From sequence record NC_008720.1: a DNA stretch of 64,000 nucleotides; one strand, given 5' to 3'. The notes beneath the pieces are model-generated. The model made no database searches. It saw nothing but the letters and a program-made list of their open reading frames with translations, and had not been told where the DNA came from. Below are positions 34,523-58,756 of the stretch, one piece after another. Source of the stretch: Escherichia phage N4. Within the stretch, counting starts at the first letter, position 1. The number at the start of each line of letters is the position of its first letter. The position numbers and the translations under genes were made by a program.

Positions 34523-37500
34523 TTAGTGAGTAAGGTTGAACCAAGGATTGAGGGTAGGTGCTCTTAATCCTTGTCCGAAGCCTAATGAGTAATCCAGTCT
34601 TCCTTCAGCCAGCATGGTTAGCATGTTGTCCTGAATTGGTAGACCTACGTTACCAAACATGGTAGGAGCAGGTACTACTGTAGCAATCAGAGAATGTACT
34701 GGGTTGTTTCTAATCATGCTCATAGCAACTTTAATGGAACGAATTTTAAAGTTGTAGAACCACATCAGACCCATACTTTCCATATAGCCACGGAAACGAC
34801 CAGGCAATCTGTCATAGTTAATAAACTCTTCAGTTACCTGACCTAATGCTTCAGAAGAAGATTTTTTCTTACGTTTCACTAAATCATCATAGATGATGGC
34901 TTTAGCAATAAAGTCTGAATACTCTACTGTTTTCTGGATACCCTGGAACAGAGCAGTGTCCTTAGCAATAAGAGCGTAACGGCCAGCATTACGTACTTTT
35001 TCTGGAAGTTTATTAGCAAGTTTTTCCATGTACTCATGAATCTTACCTTCAGCTACTAACAGGTCATCACGACTAATACCAGCATCAGCAATAGAAGAGA
35101 ACTCACCTGCTTCAATCAAAGGCCAGATACTCATACGACGATGACTATCAGTAATAGATTGAATCTCAGTTTTAAGTTTACGAACCAGATTAGGGTTACC
35201 TTCAGCAGCACGTAGCTCTGCTTCCGCATCAATCTGACGTAAACGAGATTTAATATACTGATTAATCTCTGACGTCTTACGAGGAATGTTCACAGCAATA
35301 TCTTTAACAGGAACACCACGTCCAATCATCTGGTAGATGTTAGCAAGGAAGTTAACTGCCGGTACTACAACAGATTTAACAACAATTACTGTCTTAGCGT
35401 CCTTCACTAAGTTCTGAATGGTATTTTCAGCATTCATTACTACATGATATGCCTTATTACCGAATGCACCGAGGAACATCTTCTTAACAGTATCAAGGGT
35501 GCTAGGTGACCAACGAGAGTTACCGGTCCACACATCACCAATAGATGCAGCACGATAGCCAAGTGCATCATTCAGCATATCCCTACGAACCCATAACTCA
35601 TCTTTACCGAAGAGTTCTTCGGCCTTATGACGAGTCTCAATGTTCATCAGGTTAATCGCATCAGCCAGTACTGGGTCATCAATTTTACCTAACAGGTTTA
35701 CATATTGAGATTTATTAGCACTGGAGTCTTTAATGTCTTTCTCATACATAGCATGTAATTGCTCAATGAGAATGTCATTAAAACGTTGTGCTTTAGCCTC
35801 TTCCACCTGACGACCACGCCATACACCAACCATCTTAGCAAAGTGATTGTCTTGGTTTAGGTGCTTCAACATATTAGGGTCAACGGATTGTTCATAAGCA
35901 ACTACCTGACCTTTGCTGTTATAAATTGGCATCAGTGGTTCACGCCCACGCTCACCTTTAGCCAGAGCTTTGGTAATACGCTCTACGGTTGGTTTGTCAG
36001 TAATACGCCCAGCAACCATAGTGCCTAACGTAAAGCCAGTACCAATATCCACACCACCAGCAGTATTACGAACGTTCTGAAGAATACCCTGAGAGTAAGG
36101 GGCACGGGCAGCTACTGGGCTGAAGTAATAACCTTTAGAACCAGTACGGAAACCAGTGCTCCCCTGATAAGTACCAATACGAGTAAAGGATTGGCTATTT
36201 AACTTAGCAAACTCTTTATCGTCAGCAATAATCAAATTCACACCTTGCTGGTTCTCTACAGGGATATAGCCTTTAAAGTGATTCAGCAGAGTACGGTTAT
36301 CACCTTTAGCTTTACGCATCTCTTCAGTACGTTGACCAACCATATAAGCAATGGAGAACTCCATACCTTCCACTTCTGATTGAGCCAATTCTGACAAAAG
36401 GTCACGGTCAGACTTATTCATCAATTCCAGAGAGTACAAAGTAATGAGCTTATCAATAGCAGCTACATCTGCCACAGGACCATTAGTAATACGTTCACCT
36501 AACAAACGACTAATAGCATGGGCATTACGAAGGAGGTTATTACCTACTTCCCCCATAATCATGTATTGAGCCAGTTGCTTAGATTTCTTCTGAACCAGAT
36601 TCCAGTTTCTACCTGCTTGGTTCTGAATCTCTTTTTCCAGAGTAGAGATTTCATCTTTCACTTTCTTGGATGAAGAGAGTAAATCTCTAATTTCAGCCAT
36701 GCTCATAGTTTCACGTAGAACAGCTAAATCTGTTTTACCTAAACCAGTATGCATTGCAGACCATTCGGTATCAGTCAATTTACGAGAGAACTTACCAGCA
36801 ATGACTGTAGGTAAATGCTCACGGAATTGCTGACGGTCTTGAGAAATCTGGCTCTTAACCAATTTGATTAAGTCATAGACATTGGCATTAGTCTTAGTAC
36901 GGCCAACAATGTCATTAACTAAGTCATGGAAAGGTTGCCATACTTTACCCTGGTTCATAGCAGTCATAACACCCTGAGCCACTATTTCACCCTGTTTTTC
37001 AGATGCAATAGCAGCAGTCAGTTTAGCCAGATGAGCAACACCTTTAGCAGCTATATTAGAAGGGTTAGCAATTACCTTATCTGCCTTCTCAATAACAGTT
37101 TCAGATAACCGTTCAATGCTATCCGTTACGTACTGATTAGCACGGTCAATGAAGTTACCGGTAGGGGTTGCTACAGCATCATAGAAGGACTCTCGTTTCA
37201 AAGCAGCAGCCATGATTGTTTCTGACAAAGCATCAATACTGTCCTGAACATTAGTAGCTTTCTGGTCACCAGCCATACGACGGTTCAGAGATTCCATTAC
37301 CTGAGTACCTGCATTGGTAAGCAGAGTATCTATATCATTCCCTAATTTCTTATCTGCTTTAGGTACAGGCATTTCTTTAATGATTGAACGTAGTTCTTCA
37401 TTAACCATAGCCAGACCCAGGAATGTAGGTAACAGACTGGTTCTACCTTTGGCATCTACTTCAACCAGATTAGCACCAGAGATGGTGTCATATTTCTGTT

Positions 37501-40500
37501 GAGCATAGTAACGGTCAGCAGGGTTAGTACTATCAGGGTCAGCCATGAAATGCTCTACCGTAAGGTGTTTCATTACATGGGTATAAAGTTCCTGAGCACG
37601 AGCCATAGCATGTGGGTCAATCGCAGCTTCAGTTGCTAATGCAGCAGTAACCATCTGGAATACAGACTGTTCCTGAGCAGTCATATTGAAGCCATGAGAC
37701 TGAACATCACGAACCAGTCGAGTAGCACTCATTAATGCATTAGCCACATTGCCACGACGTTCTACTTCTGTAACTGGGTCAGTACGAAGGTAATCAGTTA
37801 CCAGTTTATCGAAAGTCTGGTTCAACTGAGACAGACGTTCATTATTACCATATGCTTTGCTATGGAACAGTGTGCCATCTTTAGCTACTGCCTGAGTTGT
37901 AGGTTGGCTACGCATCAGAATTGCAGAGTTAAACAGCAGATTGGAGAACATATCTTCTCCCAATGCAGGAGCTTGTTTACGTCCCCAAATCAATTTCTTA
38001 ATAGCCTGATAAACATCTTTCACCATTTGAACCAGTGAAGATGTTCTCTTCTGTTTAGCAGCAAGAGCACGGTTAGCTAACCCCCAAGCCATAAACTCAT
38101 TAAGAGCAGCAGCTTTAGAGATAGCTGGGTCAACAAATCCATTACTCAAATGACCTTCGATAGTTGCAATAGCATCAGCATATGCTTCTCTCATTTCTGG
38201 AGAATCTTTGGAAATATCCAGAGAACGGAACTGTTCCATCAGACCTTCAAGGTTCTCAATAGCCTGCTTAGAAGTAGGGCTTACTTCATTACCCTGATAG
38301 AAGGAATAAACTTCCTCGAAGGTAGAGGCATGAACCAGTTCATGAATGAGGGTTTCCATAGATGGGCTAACCAGATAAATGGTCTTATCATCGAAGTTAG
38401 TCCAGCCATAAATATTACCTGCCTGAGCTTCTTCCATTTCCTGAGAAGTCAATTCAGTAACATTCTTCTGACGAGCATACTCTGCAACCTGAGTAGGTGT
38501 ACCGTAGATAATCTTATAGTCTTTAGCTGCCAGTGATTTCTGAATCTCCGCAAGAGTAGCTGCCTGAGTAGATGGCAGATTACTAATCTTAGCCAGATTA
38601 CGAATAGCAGTAGCAGACAGGATACGAACACCAGATGCCTTATGCTCACGGCCTACCATACCAAAGTCTGGATTCACTGGTTCTTTTTCAGAAACAGTTT
38701 CTTCTTTGACTTCAGCCCTAGCCTTAGCGACTTTTTGTTTACGGGCTTCTAACTCTTCACGGAAAAGTTTATTCAGTTCATCAGCCTGTTGTTCAGGGGT
38801 CATATTGCTGAGGTCAATCTTACCGTTGTTCTGATAAGGAGCACCTACAGCAGCCATCTGGTCAATGGACAGATTTACCTTATCCAGCACCTTATGACGA
38901 ATATCTACACCCAGTGCAATATTACGTAAGTTACGTTCAATCAGAGATGCAGCGTTAGCAATATCATCTACAGTAGCATTCTCACGTTGGTCATATTCCA
39001 GAGCAGATTTACCAATTGCTTCCAATGCTTCAGGGGACAGCTTGCTGAAATCTACATTCTTCATGAACTTAGCATATGATTCATAAACATTCTTAATAGG
39101 GTTACCCTGCCAAGAAGTGTAAACAGCTTCATTAGCTTTACGACTGGCATCAGTGATGTCATTCAAACCAATGTTCATACCATCAAAGATTTTGAGGGTA
39201 TTCTTTGGTGCACCTTTCATAGTGGAAAGAGTTTGCATCATCATGCCATCACCAGTACCAATAGTCATAAATGGAATACCTGCTACACCGGCCTGTGCTG
39301 GAGCATAGATACTCATTGGTACACGCATACGGTCATCAAGGTTAGTAGCTAATACCTGATTTGCTACTTCTGCATTTTCTGAACCAGCAATGTAGAAAGT
39401 CTGAGAACCAGTCTCAATCATAGGGGCTAAGTTATTCAGAGAAGCCTGAATATCATTCAGTTCTTTCTGAGTAAGGAAATCACCTTTCTTCCATGTTGGG
39501 TCTTTAGCCTTCTCTGCCAGCTTCTCTTGTACTCGCTGTTTGAACATATCTTCCAGCACTACAGATTGAATCTGAGTAGCTTTCTGTAATTGTTCAGTAG
39601 AGTACACCAGACTTTCACCTACAGTCTGAGTAATACCATTACGTAGTGGTTCTACAAAGAAGTGCAGCATATTTTCCTGAAGTGCCTTCAGTTGCTCGCC
39701 CTTAATGGTATAGGTCTTAGGATTGATTTTTCCTTTGGCTCCTGTACCTGTGGATTGTAGTTCCAGTACACCTTTACGTTTAACAGGAACAGTAGAAGTC
39801 AGTGTTTCCATATCTTTCAGGAAACGGGCAAGAAGTTCTTCAGCATGTGCTTCTGAAGCAGCTTGCTTACCAAACATTGCCATAGCAGCAGAGATATTTG
39901 GGTCTTTAGCACGAGCTTTCAGTACATCAGACATACGCTCATAGATGGCATCAGTAACAGAACTAACCAGCTTACCTGCAATACCACGAGCACCAGAACC
40001 ATAGATGGTAATAGTCAGTGGGTTCTTAGCAATACCACGTTTAAGTTCTAAAGCACCATTCTCACCAAGATTAATATCCGGTAAAAACAAATCCATCAGA
40101 GAAAGAAGACTGTCTATCTGAGACTGAATAGGCATATTAGAGGCATAGTTACTACGTAACTTACCCAACGATTCCATCAAAGCATTAGTGGATGCTTGAT
40201 ATAAATCATTATTGTCAGCAGTAGAGCGATGCTCATTCATGGTCTTATTTGGAGAACCAATGAACAAGCCCCCTTTGGCAATATTACGAATCCAGTCAGG
40301 AGTAAACAGACCGCCTGTCATTAGCATCATGGCATTGATTGGACCATTAGTAACACCATCTGCTTCTACATACAGTGGAGTTACAAATGCAGATTTATCC
40401 TCTGCTACTAAGTAACGGGAATACTCCATAAGAGCCATCAATGCTACGAATGACTTCCTATCTCCTAATGCTGTATTCAGAACATCAACTGCGTTTTCTG

Positions 40501-43500
40501 GTAAGGAACCAGTGGTATTAAACTCAACCATCATATCAATGGCTGGTTTCAGATTACCTTCCAGTAATTTAGTCAACTCGTCAGACATAACCTCACGAGT
40601 CATAGTATGGACTTTAATGTCCAATGCCTGAGCCAGACCTAACTGGAATGCAGAGAAGTCTTCATTGTTCTGGTTCGATAAATCCAAAGTAGCTTTAGTA
40701 GGTAAGATGGCCTCACGAACCAGTTTGGCTGATTGAGGATTGTATTTACCTAACATCTGCATACGACCAACACGGGTCATATTGTATGCATAGTGAATAG
40801 GTACAGTAGAGATGTCTTCGCTCTGTGCTCTTACCTGCTCAATGACGGAGAACAGTTGGTTGTAAGAGTCCTCTACTGAACGGTTCTTACCTTCCAGAGA
40901 TTTAGCATGGTTATCATTAAGTAACTCTTTATTCAGAGTACCAGCACCCATCAGTTCGAGAATACGGTCTTTACCTAACGTCTCATAGAATTGAACCATT
41001 GGGGTGTGTACATAGAACTCTGTAGCCTGCTCTGCTTTCAATGCAGCCTTCTGTTCTGGAGTATTACGAACAGCAGGGTTACGAAGCTGAGTATTAGCTA
41101 CAGGAGGAATGTCATCACCAAAGAACATCTTCTCTGTAGGATTCACTAAAACAGCTTCTTCAATAGCAGTAGGGAAGCTATTAATTGGGTCGAAGGAATC
41201 CAGTTCAGTAATGGTGTACAGACCAATAGTCTTCTTGTTATCTGGGTCAATTTCTGACATATCCACGATGTTCTCTACAACATCAGTAGACTCTACAAAT
41301 GCAGCCAGAATTTCAGCAGCCATTGCTGTAGGGATGCCTTTGGTATAGCCCAATGGAGCATTTGGATTACGAGATAATCCCCAGTAAGACTCAATTTTCT
41401 GAGCCAGGGAACTAACTGCTTCAGTGAGTGTCATACCAGTATCAAATTGCTCTACTAAACCTTCTGGCAGCAGAGCTTGGTCAATACCAGTAATAGCAGC
41501 AACATCTTTTGCATCTTTGATAGCAGTATTGCTGGTAGCAGTAAGTCTCCATTGAAGACCTGCTAATACAGCAGTCTGTAGCAATTGTTCGTTGTACTTA
41601 AAGGTATCCCCATCCTGCTCAACAATGTTAAGTAACTTACCACCTACCCAACGGTTGGCTTCTGTACCTTGAGCAAAACGTTTACCAACATCCTTAGTGT
41701 TAAGGAACTTAGCCAGACGGGAGCGAAGAATATCAGCAATACCTTCCCCATGTTCCATGAGTTCTTTGTATCGCTTAATAACTTCCCCATTAAAAGCAGG
41801 GTTAGCAGTTTCTTTCTCAGTAAAGAGTTCATAACGAGCACGAGAAGACAGAGCTTGGGCTACATCTTTTAGAGGTGCTTCTGAACCAACAGTACGGGAT
41901 TTCTGTTCTTCTGGTAAGGTAAAGGACAATTTGAAATAGTTCTTAATACCCTCTGCTTTAGAATCAGCAGTACCTACCAATGAAGGGTAAACAGCATCAA
42001 TACCTTCTTTTAATTCTTCTGTAACTGTACTTTCTTTTGTAGAAGTTTCAGTTTCTTTAACAGATTCAGTAGGTTGCTTGATGTTGTCCTCATTAGTAAG
42101 GTTAACATCCTGTTTTTCAGACTGGTTCACAGGTTCTTTTATAGCCTGTGGGCTAGACTCTTTAGTAGTAGGTTCTGTTTTAACAGATTCACTAACAGGA
42201 GTCTTAGTCTGTACAGTAGATGTAACTGGTTCCTGTTTTGTAACAGGAGTTTCTTTAACCTGATTCACGGAGTCAGCTTTCGGTTGAGAAGAAGCAACGT
42301 CTCGATTGCCTTGACGGAATGCCTTGACCACCTCAGCAGCAGGAGCGTTAAGACGTGAATCCAATGGAGTAACTTTTATATGACTGACCTTCAGTTCCGG
42401 GTAAGCCGAAGCGAGGGCATTAGCAATATCCGCTACCGTTTTCGCTTCAAGAGCAACTTGCTGGGCAAATTTAACCGACTTAGTGTCATAGGGATTGACC
42501 CCCAATCCGGTACGGCTACGAACCCATTCTCTGTCAGCAGTAAGAGCTTGGTAGTGGACAGACTTATTCTTATCCGCATTCCCCGTAACAAGATGCTCAT
42601 TCAACGCTCCAACCTTATTCTGCATGTGCTGGGCGAACTGCATAAAGTCGTTCAGGTAAGCGGAGGCCAACTCGAAATTACCAGAGTTATACGCAGACCG
42701 AATCCTATTCGCATGTTGCAACGCAGAGTATTGTCCTTCCTGAGTTCTGCTCTCATCCGTTTTAATCTGTTTACTCACAATGTCTTGAGGACGTAATCCA
42801 AGACGGGCAGCTTCTGCATCATATTCCCGTGCCCCCTTCAGGATTGCAGCAGCATTCTGGAGGGCAGCAATCTGGCGATTATTCAGTTTAATACGACCAT
42901 CAGCAGCATGTTTAAGAACAACATTTACAGACTCTGGATTGAGCTTTTCAGGGGCTACTTCAGCAGCTAATGCTACGTTCTGCATTTCCTGTGGACTGGA
43001 TTCTTCAGTCACATTCAAAGAACCATTCTGAGCAGATTCATTAATCATTCGATTAATAACATTCAGTGCACCAATTACTTTTGGTGTGTTCTGAATATTA
43101 GCTGTCAGATTCGTATAACGGTTGAGTAACTCAATAGCCGGAGAATCTTTAGGAATGCTATCCAGTGCAGCAGGGTCACGGTTAATGAACTGCTCAAACT
43201 CTGAAACAGCATCATACATATAAGATGCAGCTTCCATCAGTGCTTGAGGATTAGATTCATCTAATGTGTTAACTAAGTCTGCTAACTTCTGAATAACCTG
43301 TACTTGGTCAGTAGAACCAGCTACAGCATTACGAATATGCTCTGGTGCTTCCTGATAATTTTCAGGATTAAAACGAGTAGCATTCATTAAGTCAGAAACA
43401 TACTGGTGTGCTGCAACTTTCTGTTCTGGAGTAGCATCAGTTGCTTCAACAGCATCACGAATAGTAACTTCTGCTTCTGGTGCTTGAGCCATAGCTTCTT

Positions 43501-45043
43501 GTGCTGCCTGTGCAACATAGTCATCAGCAACAGGAGATGCTTCTTCATTCTGCTTCATAACCCGTTCACCACGAGCTACTAAAGTATTCTTAATAGGAGA
43601 AACAACCTTACCTGCTACACTACCAGCAGCTTTAACACCAGCCATTGTGGTACGCAATACAGGAGCAGTTGCAGCACCTGCTAAACGAGCAGCACCAGCC
43701 GGAGCCTGTACAACACCAGCAGAACCAAAGCCATAAAGAGCACCTAAACCAGCCTGTGTACCGACACCTTTAAGCAGGTCTTGGTTCTTATCAATGTTTT
43801 GTTGCTGTGCAATATTCTGAGCCAGTTGGCCTGTAGCACCCTGAACACCTTCTTCCACTGTTTCACGGGCAAGGTTCATACCTACAGCACCTAAAGAGCC
43901 AGCACGGAAAGGAGCCATCTCAAAACGGGATACCAGAGGACCGGTTGCAGCAGCAATAGGTAATTGAATAGCAGCAGCAGTAAGACCAGTTTCAGATGCA
44001 GTCTGACGACGAGCCTGTTCAGGGGACATACCATCTTTAATATGTTGCTGATAAACAGGAGACTTCTCTAAGTCTTTAAGACTCATCTTCATAATTTCAT
44101 CAGCAGTTTGTTGGTATGCACCACCAGCTTCCATTGCACCAACACCAACCATACCCGGTGCAGCTCTACCTACAGTAGAGGCAATACGAGCCAGTGACTG
44201 AGTACCAGTACCTGCATCAATAGCACCAGCCAATGCAGCACTACGAAGAGTATTTGCTGGAACAACTGCTTTACCCAGTAAAGATGCACCCCTTAATACA
44301 GGACCAGCACCTAATAGAGAACCTACCCCTTCTGCTAACCCATCAGAAATAATAGAGTCAGTTTGAGCAGCATTCTCAATTGAACCTACAAAATCACGTC
44401 CAAATTTAGATAAGGAAGCTACTATGTCATTAGTGCCTTCTTTCTTATCTGTTTGATACTGACGTTCACTCTCTACTTCATTCATTAAGTTACGAGCAGC
44501 AAAGAGCTTACGTTTATCTTGTAATGCCTGGCTTTGGGTAGCATGAACAGCATCATTAAACTTACTCAATTGTTGAGCAACAACAGCACCTGCATCATCG
44601 TTGAGTAAGCCTGCCCCAAGAGCACCAATGCCCCCAAGGGTATTAACAAAACCAAGGCCAACACCAGTAGCAATATCCCCCAGTTCTTCCCCAGGAGTTC
44701 TTGTAGTAACTGAATCATTGAATACCTGGTTCCCTGCATCAGCACGAGCATTGATAAGTTGTAAGCCTTGCTCAACCCCATACTTATTCATGATTTGCAT
44801 TGGGGTCAGATTCATGAAATCTGATTGCACTGTCCCTGGTTCAAATGCATTAGCCCCAACATTACCAGTACGGGCAGCTTGCATTTGATAAGCAGCATCA
44901 GGAGAAACAAGAGGAGTAGTGACACCTTGTTCAGCTTTCTTCTGGGCGGTTGCAGTAGAGACGTCAACTTGCTTTGCATTGGTTACGCTGTCTGCGAACC
45001 CAGCCAGTCTATCAAATACTGACATAGTAGGTTTCCTATACAA
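34523..45043 (-). CDS. Virion-encapsidated RNA polymerase (vRNAP; N4 gp50-like, 3506 aa)
   Basis: Giant ORF of N4 vRNAP size; central region has T7-like motif A (VEADGVTNGPINAMMLMTGG) and motif B-like K...YGSG; position at the distal end of the late strand. Confidence 0.88.
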   Translation of the reverse strand: MYRKPTMSVFDRLAGFADSVTNAKQVDVSTATAQKKAEQGVTTPLVSPDAAYQMQAARTGNVGANAFEPGTVQSDFMNLTPMQIMNKYGVEQGLQLINARADAGNQVFNDSVTTRTPGEELGDIATGVGLGFVNTLGGIGALGAGLLNDDAGAVVAQQLSKFNDAVHATQSQALQDKRKLFAARNLMNEVESERQYQTDKKEGTNDIVASLSKFGRDFVGSIENAAQTDSIISDGLAEGVGSLLGAGPVLRGASLLGKAVVPANTLRSAALAGAIDAGTGTQSLARIASTVGRAAPGMVGVGAMEAGGAYQQTADEIMKMSLKDLEKSPVYQQHIKDGMSPEQARRQTASETGLTAAAIQLPIAAATGPLVSRFEMAPFRAGSLGAVGMNLARETVEEGVQGATGQLAQNIAQQQNIDKNQDLLKGVGTQAGLGALYGFGSAGVVQAPAGAARLAGAATAPVLRTTMAGVKAAGSVAGKVVSPIKNTLVARGERVMKQNEEASPVADDYVAQAAQEAMAQAPEAEVTIRDAVEATDATPEQKVAAHQYVSDLMNATRFNPENYQEAPEHIRNAVAGSTDQVQVIQKLADLVNTLDESNPQALMEAASYMYDAVSEFEQFINRDPAALDSIPKDSPAIELLNRYTNLTANIQNTPKVIGALNVINRMINESAQNGSLNVTEESSPQEMQNVALAAEVAPEKLNPESVNVVLKHAADGRIKLNNRQIAALQNAAAILKGAREYDAEAARLGLRPQDIVSKQIKTDESRTQEGQYSALQHANRIRSAYNSGNFELASAYLNDFMQFAQHMQNKVGALNEHLVTGNADKNKSVHYQALTADREWVRSRTGLGVNPYDTKSVKFAQQVALEAKTVADIANALASAYPELKVSHIKVTPLDSRLNAPAAEVVKAFRQGNRDVASSQPKADSVNQVKETPVTKQEPVTSTVQTKTPVSESVKTEPTTKESSPQAIKEPVNQSEKQDVNLTNEDNIKQPTESVKETETSTKESTVTEELKEGIDAVYPSLVGTADSKAEGIKNYFKLSFTLPEEQKSRTVGSEAPLKDVAQALSSRARYELFTEKETANPAFNGEVIKRYKELMEHGEGIADILRSRLAKFLNTKDVGKRFAQGTEANRWVGGKLLNIVEQDGDTFKYNEQLLQTAVLAGLQWRLTATSNTAIKDAKDVAAITGIDQALLPEGLVEQFDTGMTLTEAVSSLAQKIESYWGLSRNPNAPLGYTKGIPTAMAAEILAAFVESTDVVENIVDMSEIDPDNKKTIGLYTITELDSFDPINSFPTAIEEAVLVNPTEKMFFGDDIPPVANTQLRNPAVRNTPEQKAALKAEQATEFYVHTPMVQFYETLGKDRILELMGAGTLNKELLNDNHAKSLEGKNRSVEDSYNQLFSVIEQVRAQSEDISTVPIHYAYNMTRVGRMQMLGKYNPQSAKLVREAILPTKATLDLSNQNNEDFSAFQLGLAQALDIKVHTMTREVMSDELTKLLEGNLKPAIDMMVEFNTTGSLPENAVDVLNTALGDRKSFVALMALMEYSRYLVAEDKSAFVTPLYVEADGVTNGPINAMMLMTGGLFTPDWIRNIAKGGLFIGSPNKTMNEHRSTADNNDLYQASTNALMESLGKLRSNYASNMPIQSQIDSLLSLMDLFLPDINLGENGALELKRGIAKNPLTITIYGSGARGIAGKLVSSVTDAIYERMSDVLKARAKDPNISAAMAMFGKQAASEAHAEELLARFLKDMETLTSTVPVKRKGVLELQSTGTGAKGKINPKTYTIKGEQLKALQENMLHFFVEPLRNGITQTVGESLVYSTEQLQKATQIQSVVLEDMFKQRVQEKLAEKAKDPTWKKGDFLTQKELNDIQASLNNLAPMIETGSQTFYIAGSENAEVANQVLATNLDDRMRVPMSIYAPAQAGVAGIPFMTIGTGDGMMMQTLSTMKGAPKNTLKIFDGMNIGLNDITDASRKANEAVYTSWQGNPIKNVYESYAKFMKNVDFSKLSPEALEAIGKSALEYDQRENATVDDIANAASLIERNLRNIALGVDIRHKVLDKVNLSIDQMAAVGAPYQNNGKIDLSNMTPEQQADELNKLFREELEARKQKVAKARAEVKEETVSEKEPVNPDFGMVGREHKASGVRILSATAIRNLAKISNLPSTQAATLAEIQKSLAAKDYKIIYGTPTQVAEYARQKNVTELTSQEMEEAQAGNIYGWTNFDDKTIYLVSPSMETLIHELVHASTFEEVYSFYQGNEVSPTSKQAIENLEGLMEQFRSLDISKDSPEMREAYADAIATIEGHLSNGFVDPAISKAAALNEFMAWGLANRALAAKQKRTSSLVQMVKDVYQAIKKLIWGRKQAPALGEDMFSNLLFNSAILMRSQPTTQAVAKDGTLFHSKAYGNNERLSQLNQTFDKLVTDYLRTDPVTEVERRGNVANALMSATRLVRDVQSHGFNMTAQEQSVFQMVTAALATEAAIDPHAMARAQELYTHVMKHLTVEHFMADPDSTNPADRYYAQQKYDTISGANLVEVDAKGRTSLLPTFLGLAMVNEELRSIIKEMPVPKADKKLGNDIDTLLTNAGTQVMESLNRRMAGDQKATNVQDSIDALSETIMAAALKRESFYDAVATPTGNFIDRANQYVTDSIERLSETVIEKADKVIANPSNIAAKGVAHLAKLTAAIASEKQGEIVAQGVMTAMNQGKVWQPFHDLVNDIVGRTKTNANVYDLIKLVKSQISQDRQQFREHLPTVIAGKFSRKLTDTEWSAMHTGLGKTDLAVLRETMSMAEIRDLLSSSKKVKDEISTLEKEIQNQAGRNWNLVQKKSKQLAQYMIMGEVGNNLLRNAHAISRLLGERITNGPVADVAAIDKLITLYSLELMNKSDRDLLSELAQSEVEGMEFSIAYMVGQRTEEMRKAKGDNRTLLNHFKGYIPVENQQGVNLIIADDKEFAKLNSQSFTRIGTYQGSTGFRTGSKGYYFSPVAARAPYSQGILQNVRNTAGGVDIGTGFTLGTMVAGRITDKPTVERITKALAKGERGREPLMPIYNSKGQVVAYEQSVDPNMLKHLNQDNHFAKMVGVWRGRQVEEAKAQRFNDILIEQLHAMYEKDIKDSSANKSQYVNLLGKIDDPVLADAINLMNIETRHKAEELFGKDELWVRRDMLNDALGYRAASIGDVWTGNSRWSPSTLDTVKKMFLGAFGNKAYHVVMNAENTIQNLVKDAKTVIVVKSVVVPAVNFLANIYQMIGRGVPVKDIAVNIPRKTSEINQYIKSRLRQIDAEAELRAAEGNPNLVRKLKTEIQSITDSHRRMSIWPLIEAGEFSSIADAGISRDDLLVAEGKIHEYMEKLANKLPEKVRNAGRYALIAKDTALFQGIQKTVEYSDFIAKAIIYDDLVKRKKKSSSEALGQVTEEFINYDRLPGRFRGYMESMGLMWFYNFKIRSIKVAMSMIRNNPVHSLIATVVPAPTMFGNVGLPIQDNMLTMLAEGRLDYSLGFGQGLRAPTLNPWFNLTH

Positions 45044-45090
45044 ACTTATATCTATTAGAAATCACACTATACCTAGTGTAAGGACGAGAA

Positions 45091-45110
45091 AAAAGCCCCG
45101 AAGGGCTTTT
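45091..45110 (-). terminator. Terminator hairpin upstream of the vRNAP gene
   Basis: AAAAGCCC-CGAA-GGGCTTTT; on the minus strand followed by TTTTTT. Confidence 0.6.
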
Positions 45111-45125
45111 GTATTATGGTAGAAA

Positions 45126-47060
45126 TTAACGAGGAAATATATCAGGGATACCCAATCGACGCCCGGCATCTCTGCCTAAACTTCTCCGGTTCGCCTCGCT
45201 CTCTTCCTGTTTAATATTTTGTAAGCTCTTAATATCCAAATTCTGAGGGTCAGCAGCTACAGCACTACGAGCACCATCAAGAAGACGTTTAGCAGTATTA
45301 ACTCGCTCCTGATAGCGAGGTAGTACACTTCTAAGGTTTTCCTGACCGGTCTGAATACGACGCTGTACTTCACGTAAATCAGCAAGTGCAGTATCTAACG
45401 TATTCTGTGCTGCATAGATGTTTGATTGAATTTGTGCAGTAAGCTGATTACGAGCATTCTGTTCAATAGCAGTACCAGTAGTTGCAAGTTTTGCATTTGC
45501 TTCTACGGCTGCTTTATCCAGTTGGTAATCACCACCCAAATCAATAACATCAGTATCAAAGGCATTTCGAATACCACTAAACCATCCCTCTGGTTTACCA
45601 GTGATACTACGTTGAATGATTGCTCCTGCCATAGCGGGAGAAATAGCATTCTGTTTTGCTACCTCATTGATTTGTCGAACCAGTGCACCTTGATTAATGC
45701 CTTTCAGTTCATTGCTATCAATAATACGTTTAGCCACCTGACCAGTCGTAGAAGGGTCAACAGTAGCAGCTTGGTATTCTGGCAGCAGAGTATTACCAAT
45801 ATTCTGCATATTACGAGTACCAACAGTATTACCAGCAACAGAAGTAAATGCTTGTTCCTGTAATGGATTAATAGAATTACCTGTTTCTGCTTGAGCAATG
45901 TAATCCTTCATTTCATCCCATGACAAGTTCTTATAAGCACCAGGAGTATCATCTGGTAAAGCAGCCCATGTACTCTTCAAATTGCCATTCTTACGAGCAT
46001 TAAAAATAGCTTCACCCAGTTTGTCTTGGTTCTCTGGGGACATAGGAATGTTCTGCCAATTTTCACCAAATACCTTTGGAGCAAAGTCTTTAAGGGTATC
46101 TTGGTTAATCTGGTATGCACCAACAGGAGAAGCACCTAGTGTCTTCTTCATAGTGTCTTGATGCTGAACCACCTCACCTAAGTTCATCTGAGTAATAGGT
46201 ACATCAGTTGGTGTGAACTTGTAGGTAGTGTCATATGCAGAACCATTCCGAGTACCATGAGTACCAGGAGGAGATAGAGGTGCAGAACCAGTTCCCGGAG
46301 TATATGCACCTGGGTATGCCCTATCTAACTGAGATAGAGCACGACTTACTGCTCCAGGTGACATTTGGTCGAACGTACCCTCTGCAAGCATACGAGCATC
46401 GTCAGAACTGTATGCACCACGACGGATATTATTCAGTAACTGCATAGCAGCCTGAGTATCCGCATCGTTACGCATATCAACACCTAAGTTGAATAGGCTA
46501 CGACGTTGACCAATACCAGCAGTACCTTGTCCTTGAAGGTTGTTCATGTAGTCCATAACAATACCAGCAGGAAGGGTTTTTAATACATCCCCATACTGAG
46601 CCTGTGCTGCCTGAACCTTTCTTGGGTCACCAGATTGATAAGCCAGAGCCAATTCCTGCAATGCAGGAGCAGCAGCATCAGTAGCTGCATTTACCTTCAT
46701 GGTTCTGTCATTACTGTATCGAGTGAAATCCAGATTTTGTTGTTTAGATGCTTGGTCTAACAGATTGCCAGCACGATTATCTAAGTTCTCCATAGTGCGA
46801 GAAGAAATTAGAGAAGGGTCATAGCCAGCAAATAATGCTCCAGAAGCTAAGGCATTACGATACTCATTAGGGTCTTGGTAACGCATGGCTTCAGCCATAA
46901 TTGCATCACCAGCTTGCTGTCTTGCAGAGTTTCGAAAATCACCTAATGCATTACTCAATCCGGCAGTGGCATTACCCAGCATATTGGAGAAAGTACGAAT
47001 ACTATCCCCAACACCAGAGAAAGAAGGAGCATCAACATTACGCCATGTAATTTGAGCCAT
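45126..47060 (-). CDS. Virion internal protein (N4 gp51-like by position, 644 aa)
   Basis: ORF track; Gln/Asn/Ala-rich; synteny adjacent to vRNAP. Confidence 0.5.
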   Translation of the reverse strand: MAQITWRNVDAPSFSGVGDSIRTFSNMLGNATAGLSNALGDFRNSARQQAGDAIMAEAMRYQDPNEYRNALASGALFAGYDPSLISSRTMENLDNRAGNLLDQASKQQNLDFTRYSNDRTMKVNAATDAAAPALQELALAYQSGDPRKVQAAQAQYGDVLKTLPAGIVMDYMNNLQGQGTAGIGQRRSLFNLGVDMRNDADTQAAMQLLNNIRRGAYSSDDARMLAEGTFDQMSPGAVSRALSQLDRAYPGAYTPGTGSAPLSPPGTHGTRNGSAYDTTYKFTPTDVPITQMNLGEVVQHQDTMKKTLGASPVGAYQINQDTLKDFAPKVFGENWQNIPMSPENQDKLGEAIFNARKNGNLKSTWAALPDDTPGAYKNLSWDEMKDYIAQAETGNSINPLQEQAFTSVAGNTVGTRNMQNIGNTLLPEYQAATVDPSTTGQVAKRIIDSNELKGINQGALVRQINEVAKQNAISPAMAGAIIQRSITGKPEGWFSGIRNAFDTDVIDLGGDYQLDKAAVEANAKLATTGTAIEQNARNQLTAQIQSNIYAAQNTLDTALADLREVQRRIQTGQENLRSVLPRYQERVNTAKRLLDGARSAVAADPQNLDIKSLQNIKQEESEANRRSLGRDAGRRLGIPDIFPR

Positions 47061-54675: not shown

Positions 54676-57459
<2,784 letters not shown>

Positions 57460-58653: not shown

Positions 58654-58756
58654 GCTAAATCCTTATTGAAAAAGCCGGGTATCCCCGGCTCTGTTAGTCC
58701 TAATGAACAGAGAGTGTGTTTATACACCCGTCAAATAGTACCGATATTTACTAGTA

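Follow-up and report, generated by a model that had tools for sequence, protein, structure and literature searches.

The giant gene 50 of Escherichia phage N4, which encodes the virion RNA polymerase (vRNAP), is the last gene of the leftward late strand in our map of open reading frames (ORFs), 3' of the genes for gp52 and gp51 and convergent with the replication genes. It is separated from the gp51 gene by an intrinsic terminator and a leader of about 63 nt. This junction was analysed in a window of 64,000 nucleotides of the N4 genome (NC_008720.1), whose coordinates are used throughout, and was compared with the equivalent junction in other schitoviruses. The reading that we somewhat favour is that gene 50 is expressed by attenuated read-through of the terminator in combination with a weak promoter for the host RNA polymerase, made up of a -10 element only, in the leader. 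The sequence-only reading of this DNA had proposed either attenuated read-through or a separate promoter for the gene. Both would fit the data, and the comparative data lend specific support to a promoter-like element behind the terminator.

In the proposed mechanism, host RNA polymerase coming from upstream late promoters would be partly stopped at the terminator, and a fraction would read on into gene 50. The leader hexamer TATAGT would serve as a weak -10-only promoter and add a low level of transcription, giving the 10.5-kb gene a transcription unit of its own. Such a promoter would fit the late type of N4, weakly sigma-70-like and dependent on N4SSB. A weak leader hairpin that can pair with the Shine-Dalgarno sequence would add to the lowered level of vRNAP. 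The combined effect would be to hold vRNAP, at about 4 copies in each virion, under the level of gp51 and gp52 (roughly 9–12). The N4 late genes are transcribed leftward by the host sigma-70 polymerase, activated by N4SSB (PMC4496689); the late promoters require N4SSB (PMC4496689, PMC9163698) and match the sigma-70 consensus only weakly (PMC9163698). Against 4 ± 1 copies of vRNAP, the virion has 12 fragments of gp52 and a gp51 that is assumed to be a nonamer (PMC12633501), so that an element lowering vRNAP relative to gp51 would fit the copy numbers in the virion.

The terminator between the gp51 gene and gene 50

The terminator (45089–45110, minus strand) is of the canonical intrinsic type, a stem-loop, AAAAGCCC-UUCG-GGGCUUUU, followed by six U. 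On the DNA, AAAAGCCC-TTCG-GGGCTTTT lies at 45110–45091 of the minus strand, with the T run reaching 45089, and the element stands 15 nt 3' of the gp51 stop codon (45128–45126). The stem has 8 bp, including a G/C-rich core of 5 bp (4 G-C pairs), and carries a UUCG loop; its energy is -10.6 kcal/mol, and it is present in the minimum-energy fold. It is the weakest stem among the late-strand terminators of N4, the others ranging from -12.6 to -18.6 kcal/mol. Hairpins with a U-tract are few at the gene boundaries of the late strand, according to our own scan. A scan with consensus terminators missed the hairpin at 45110–45091 and found the region at background (9 sites versus 8.2 ± 2.8 in shuffled sequences); consensus scans for promoters and terminators, being at background level here, were not used as evidence.

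The close relative AL25 has an identical element that its depositors annotated as a terminator, and Stenotrophomonas phage Paxi and Enterobacter phage EcP1 likewise have an annotated terminator at the corresponding junction. For a wider comparison, 56 loci covering the junction from the gp51 homologue to the vRNAP gene were reduced to 39 distinct sequences, from Enquatrovirinae, Rothmandenesvirinae, Erskinevirinae, Pokkenvirus, Zurivirus and others. The N-termini of the vRNAPs were too divergent for a single alignment, and clade alignments were used for locus retrieval. A hairpin and U-tract of at least N4 strength was present at 36 of the 39 distinct junctions, with stems that are unrelated between genera. 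In matched control windows of coding DNA, such a signal was found in 0–7 of 39 (mean 2.4, or ~6%). The conservation of its position against these controls places the terminator beyond chance, and indicates that the terminator before gene 50 is real and under selection. The rho-independent terminator that the sequence-only reading had placed at 45091–45110 between the two genes is thus borne out by its fold, its U-tract and its recurrence at the junctions. Neither the paper on the DEV operon nor the preprint on the N4 vRNAP structure mentions it (PMC11445570, PMC12633501).

It is improbable that the hairpin serves chiefly as an insulator or as an element of the 3' end instead of regulating gene 50. 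In that case it would stabilise the message for gp54 to gp51, or would bar rightward antisense transcripts that come through gene 50 from entering the structural genes. An A-tract flanks the stem, so the plus strand too reads as a hairpin followed by UUUUGUAUU (-9.7 kcal/mol), and antisense middle transcripts over late genes have been reported in LIT1 and LUZ7 (PMC9163698). However, the plus-strand tail is poor, with 4 T in 8, and several relatives, among them Axy22 and inbricus, are without the A-tract. A much stronger bidirectional terminator already stands beyond the other end of gene 50, at 34497–34514, and an insulator would leave the conserved leader unexplained.

A long, conserved leader with a -10-like element

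From the terminator to the ATG of gene 50 there are 62–66 nt, and this is the only late terminator of N4 that is followed by a long leader. Behind the terminators after gp65, gp64, gp56 and gp55, the next start codon comes within 8–30 nt, which leaves room for a ribosome-binding site only, and those genes would therefore be expressed by read-through alone. The same difference is seen in Erwinia phage Gutmeister, with 64 nt before the vRNAP gene versus 21–40 nt at five other terminators. The N4 spacer is also more conserved than its surroundings: it is 81% identical to that of KP8 (flanking coding sequences 53–66%) and 70.5% identical to that of St11Ph5 (flanking coding DNA 53–62.5%).

Three elements stand in the leader. 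The first is the -10-like hexamer TATAGT (45066–45071, minus strand), which has 5 of 6 matches to TATAAT and is a candidate weak late promoter for the host RNA polymerase. A TAnnnT hexamer lies 37–48 nt 5' of the ATG in 19 of 20 non-redundant lineages, whereas 5,000 shuffles averaged 6.5 and never exceeded 14, and coding DNA averaged 1.3. The extended form TGnTAnnnT is found in 9 of the 20 (shuffles: mean 0.44, maximum 4). The middle bases of the hexamer vary between lineages (TATAGT, TACAGT, TAGACT, TAAACT, TAAATT and others) and the T, A and final T are constant, a pattern that is the signature of a sigma-70 -10 element. Most lineages outside the Enquatrovirinae have, in addition, a C-A motif resembling a transcription start 4–7 nt 3' of the hexamer.

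The second element is an inverted repeat around the hexamer, uACACUA-GGUA-UAGUGUg (45063–45080, minus strand), which is unique in the window. A perfect inverted repeat of 6–7 bp with the hexamer inside it is present in all six sequence classes of the Enquatrovirinae, each with a P of 0.002–0.036 against shuffles, and its arms differ by class (ACACTA/TAGTGT, ATTCACT/AGTGAAT, CTTACT/AGTAAG and others). It also occurs in some Achromobacter and Burkholderia phages, and half of the lineages are without it. On the Enquatrovirinae spacer RNAalifold gave no useful consensus (-1.9 kcal/mol), as the arms of the hairpin move out of register from one clade to the next; the repeat was for this reason tested sequence by sequence against shuffles.

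The third element is an invariant 12-mer, GATATAAGTTTG (45041–45052, minus strand). It is the exact reverse complement of CAAACTTATATC in Gutmeister, and in Erwinia and Achromobacter phages the inverted form takes the corresponding position. The degenerate 12-mer occurs once per locus, always within the vRNAP spacer, in one orientation in the Enquatrovirinae and in the opposite orientation in the Achromobacter and Erwinia phages. It is single-copy in the 64-kb window of N4, where 0.05 copies are expected, and in 47 kb of Gutmeister. Its retention in either orientation suggests that it acts as double-stranded DNA.

Closer to the gene, the Shine-Dalgarno sequence AGGAAA can pair weakly with an upstream UUUCU in the predicted fold of the leader hairpin, and AGGAA is invariant across the Enquatrovirinae alignment.

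It is extremely improbable that the hairpin and the leader motifs are functionless chance features of an AT-rich intergenic gap. The background level of the consensus terminator scans in the region would agree with such an explanation, but it is already contradicted by the comparative data, namely the frequency of the terminator at the junctions relative to controls, a spacer that is more conserved than coding DNA, and a 12-mer that is not expected to occur by chance in 64 kb.

Several other interpretations of the leader motifs were considered and rejected. The 12-mer and the inverted repeat are not genome-wide promoter or regulator motifs, as each occurs once in the 64 kb, matches with up to 2 mismatches are at chance level, and the Gutmeister 12-mer has no second copy in 47 kb either. 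An antisense promoter starting at the flipped 12-mer was set aside, since the plus-strand TAGGTT is seen by eye in N4 and KP8, but not in Gamaleyavirus. An informal comparison of the leader by eye with the consensus sequences of IHF, CRP and DnaA sites gave no convincing match, and a search of the leader region against Rfam gave only a sub-threshold chance match, to NsiR1 (E 0.43).

Read-through and promoter across the family

In Burkholderia phage HN02, an HNH endonuclease gene is found between the terminator and the block made up of the repeat, the hexamer and CAAAC, and the block stays joined to the vRNAP gene. The insertion separates the terminator from the leader block, and the spacer thus behaves as two modules. 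The insert itself (locus L010, 170–520, plus strand) is an unannotated HNH ORF of 116 amino acids with PF01844 and PF13392 domains; the motif AGGGGCTTTCT flanks it on both sides, and the GenBank record shows a small ORF on the opposite strand instead.

The long conserved leader, the TAnnnT hexamer at a fixed distance, the C-A motif and the HN02 block that is kept with the vRNAP gene together support a promoter belonging to gene 50. A number of points weigh against it. The N4 hexamer has AGG in place of TGn and is without a -35 element – the -35 position, as read from the sequence, lies in the T run of the terminator and has 2 of 6 matches – and the consensus scan gave no match there. The base at the predicted start in N4 is a pyrimidine (7 nt 3' of TATAGT). 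The range of positions used in the hexamer test was picked post hoc, after the data had been seen, and the 20 lineages are phylogenetically non-independent. A promoter leaves the 12-mer and the inverted repeat unexplained. Searches of the literature, which did not take in the primary paper on the late promoters (Cho et al. 1995), turned up no mapping of 5' or 3' transcript ends and no term-seq or RNA-seq data for N4.

Other schitoviruses are arranged differently, which also counts against it. In EcP1, QDWS595, RHph_X2_28B and the locus L050, a terminator or terminator-like hairpin stands only 16–23 nt from the ATG, that of RHph_X2_28B with a weak U-tail. The equivalents of the gp51 and gp50 genes abut or overlap in DEV and LUZ7, with 0 nt between them, and in ZC08 the gap is 13 nt, without the spacer. 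Because of these lineages with a short gap or no spacer, a private promoter is not needed for the expression of vRNAP across the family.

A separate arrangement was observed in the roseophages DSS3phi2 and R7L (L052, 680–749, and L017, 809–867), which have no terminator 5' of the vRNAP gene. In these, the region of the start codon, GUGUCAUAAUG, is paired with a complementary stretch upstream in a long hairpin whose arms are not the same in the two phages, which suggests control of translation. In every gapped arrangement, the element present would be expected to lower the output of vRNAP relative to gp51.

An appreciable but lesser possibility is that gene 50 lacks its own promoter, and that all of its mRNA comes from polymerases that pass a leaky terminator. 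The leader would then act at the level of RNA: its inverted repeat would form a hairpin for processing or stabilisation, and translation would be tuned by the AU-rich 12-mer and by the pairing with the Shine-Dalgarno sequence. Read-through must suffice in EcP1, QDWS595 and L050, whose terminators are so close to the ATG; in LUZ7 more than 60% of terminators are leaky (PMC9163698), and in DEV the three genes are co-transcribed, as determined by reverse-transcription PCR (RT-PCR) (PMC11445570). The arms of the inverted repeat covary, as those of a structure would, the roseophage hairpin that pairs the AUG region would be an RNA-level control, and the N4 leader has neither a -35 element nor TGn. 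On the other hand, the hexamer keeps its T, A and last T unchanged and 9 of 20 lineages have TGn, which together make a specific sigma-70 -10 signature that is unexpected for an RNA element. Conservation of the 12-mer in both orientations is impossible for an RNA sequence element. And because the gap in DEV and LUZ7 is 0 nt, their operon data are not applicable to N4.

It is doubtful whether most schitoviruses control the vRNAP gene by a dedicated cis-regulatory cassette, conserved in the family, that splits the ejection operon. The cassette would consist of the leaky terminator, the -10-only promoter in its covarying inverted repeat and the 12-bp element CAAACTTATATC / GATATAAGTTTG. Having been kept through an inversion, the 12-bp element would have to act as double-stranded DNA, and it may for example be a candidate binding site of a phage or host factor that sets the dosage of vRNAP.

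The value of these observations is modest and lies in the regulatory context; the comparison of the spacer between phages, and above all the 12-mer of changing orientation, is a small new lead. In recent structural papers, gp52-gp51-gp50 is regarded as a single conserved operon, a view that rests on RT-PCR in DEV, but the layout in N4 differs. If there is indeed a promoter in the leader, then the 10.5-kb gene would be a separately tuned unit, which would help to explain why there are ~4 copies of a 383-kDa protein alongside 9–12 copies of its partners. In that event, N4SSB-dependent late promoters could also be tested cleanly on the leader. The 12-mer with its flipped orientation is a small puzzle that is directly testable.

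Gene 50 and its product

The ORF is coliphage N4 gene 50, an already known gene for the virion RNA polymerase. The 3.9 kb of the window that were compared (42626–46525) are identical to the 70,153-bp N4 genome, with equal coordinates, and about 14 E. coli phages are 98–99% identical. The ORF spans 34523–45043 on the minus strand, 3,506 codons when counted from a TTG, and has no internal stop codon in its translation, so that the intact 10.5-kb frame of the sequence-only reading stands, though its length of 3,506 amino acids does not. An in-frame ATG at 45025–45023, six codons into the ORF, has the Shine-Dalgarno sequence AGGAAA (45032–45037, minus strand) 8 nt 5' of it. The product from this ATG begins MSVFDRL, has 3,500 amino acids and has the same N-terminus and length as the full-length chains in the PDB. 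Gene 50 therefore starts at ATG 45025 and extends over 34523–45025 (minus strand; stop codon 34525–34523). The TTG at 45043 was rejected as a start: it has no Shine-Dalgarno sequence, it falls within the conserved 12-mer, and the homologues and PDB chains all begin MS.

The similarity to N4 gp50 by which the earlier identification was to be checked was found over the whole protein. Residues 1–3500 match PDB entries 11gp and 9pnq, 'Virion DNA-directed RNA polymerase', end to end with 7,708 bits, and the mini-vRNAP entries 2po4, 3c2p and 3q0a match residues 997–2103. Four Pfam domains specific to vRNAPs (PF21867, PF21624, PF21894 and PF21769) cover residues 1324–2058, with E-values of 1e-22 to 1e-97.

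The central RNA polymerase domain, corresponding to the crystallised mini-vRNAP (residues 998–2103; 38717–42034, minus strand), was delimited by the PDB and Pfam matches and by the positions of the motifs. These are T/DxxGR (TRVGR) at 1417, motif A with D1556, motif B, RGIAKNPLTITIYG, at 1663–1676, and motif C, FDG, at 1947. The four motifs span residues 1417–1948 and are confined to the central third, and a pattern scan of full-length gp50 found none of the A, B and C patterns outside residues 998–2103. The catalytic residues of the mini-vRNAP, R1421, D1556, K1667, Y1675 and D1948, are the expected amino acids here. The central third of gp50 is a T7-like single-subunit polymerase, and the T7-like motifs had been correctly assigned to it from the sequence alone. 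There is no cysteine among the 3,500 residues, which agrees with the cysteine suppression noted for ejection proteins (PMC11445570).

The vRNAP is packaged in the N4 virion and ejected into the host (PMC4496689, PMC12633501), where, according to published work, it transcribes the early genes; roles in ejection, encapsidation and autoinhibition have been described for its N- and C-terminal thirds. Gene 50 as such is no novelty: N4 is the best-studied phage of its family, gene 50 is its defining gene, and structures of the full-length product have been solved.

Gene neighbourhood and late strand

Gene 51 (45126–47060, minus strand) was delimited from the ORFs and gaps, and its identity and role, a 644-amino-acid ejection protein, are from PMC12633501. 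It belongs to a block, gp54-gp53-gp52-gp51, that is tightly packed with gaps of 3–13 nt and that closes at the terminator 3' of gp51. Gene order around the vRNAP gene in AL25, Gutmeister, DEV and LUZ7 is the same as in N4.

At the other end of gene 50, 8 nt 3' of its stop codon, is the bidirectional terminator GCCCCTCATTAGAGGGGC (34497–34514, both strands), which is shared with the convergent rightward genes. It is a perfect 7-bp G+C-rich hairpin (-14.3 / -13.7 kcal/mol) with U-rich tails on both strands, and AL25 and EcP1 carry a terminator annotation for its counterpart. It looks like the boundary between middle and late transcription. An ORF of 160 amino acids (34003–34485, plus strand) has at its C-terminus a domain resembling Tad2 (Thoeris anti-defence 2), PF11195 (E 8e-24); it lies directly 3' of an ORF of the gp49 family (33632–34003; PF13876), and is a possible anti-Thoeris protein of N4. 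Four tRNA genes (Asn-GTT, Ser-TGA, Thr-TGT and Pro-TGG; 32451–33130, plus strand) lie just upstream of the gp49 region.

Between 33500 and 46500, sigma-70-like promoter matches are depleted (9, versus 27.3 ± 5.9 in shuffles), as would be expected if spurious promoters for the host polymerase were selected against within the 10.5-kb late gene.

Two other places on the late strand have signals of a similar kind. A hairpin and U-tract of -18.2 kcal/mol at 57413–57439 (minus strand) lies inside coding sequence of the lysis cassette, in the overlap of Rz and gp61; it and the signal after gp55 (-18.6 kcal/mol) are the two strongest on the late strand, and its AL25 counterpart is annotated as a terminator. 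The gap of 103 nt between gp64 and gp63 (58654–58756, minus strand) contains a -10-like GGTGTATAAAC ~45 nt before its terminator, which is only 18 nt from the gp63 ATG, and the gap may act as an attenuator or yield a short leader RNA. In Gutmeister, a near-consensus sigma-70 promoter (TTGACT, a 16-nt spacer and TATATT) lies upstream of gp91 (locus L055, 46456–46614, minus strand) at the head of a string of late genes, so that some late promoters of the family do have a -35 element.

Comparison with known systems

The protein encoded by gene 50 is the same molecule as N4 gp50 in the PDB (11gp, 9pnq, 2po4 and 3c2p), matching end to end over 3,500 amino acids, with the mini-vRNAP at residues 998–2103; no protein difference is present in the parts of the alignments shown. 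It resembles the T7-like single-subunit RNA polymerases in its T/DxxGR, A, B and C motifs and in the Asp, Lys and Tyr at the expected places. Unlike those enzymes, N4 vRNAP is about four times larger and is packaged and ejected (PMC4496689). It uses DNA-hairpin promoters on a single-stranded template with E. coli SSB, and is itself made late by the host polymerase (PMC4496689).

The order of the N4 genes for gp52, gp51 and gp50 is that of gp73-gp72-gp71 in DEV, an 'ejection operon' analogous to T7 gp14-15-16, and in both phages all three are ejection proteins encoded on the late strand (PMC11445570, PMC12633501). According to PMC11445570, the DEV genes form an operon that 191 genomes have in common. 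However, in N4 and most other subfamilies the last two genes are split by a terminator and a conserved leader of 45–70 nt, whereas in DEV and LUZ7 they abut or overlap, and the evidence for co-transcription in DEV was therefore not carried over to N4. In LUZ7, the 10.2-kb vRNAP gene was captured in no operon by ONT-cappable-seq (PMC9163698).

As a candidate promoter, the N4 hexamer resembles extended -10 (TGnTATAAT) and -10-only sigma-70 promoters in the invariant T, A and final T, and TGn is present in the 9 relatives noted above. It differs from an extended -10 promoter in having AGG instead of TGn and in being embedded in an inverted repeat. The lack of a -35 element matches the published description of N4SSB-dependent late promoters as only weakly sigma-70-like.

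The leaky intrinsic terminators within phage late operons, such as those mapped in LUZ7 by ONT-cappable-seq or those after major capsid genes, are similar to that of N4 in placing a hairpin and U-tract between genes whose products are needed in different amounts, and N4 also has such terminators after gp56 and gp55. Only the one between gp51 and gp50 precedes a long conserved leader, in which the -10-like element, the inverted repeat and the unique 12-mer stand.

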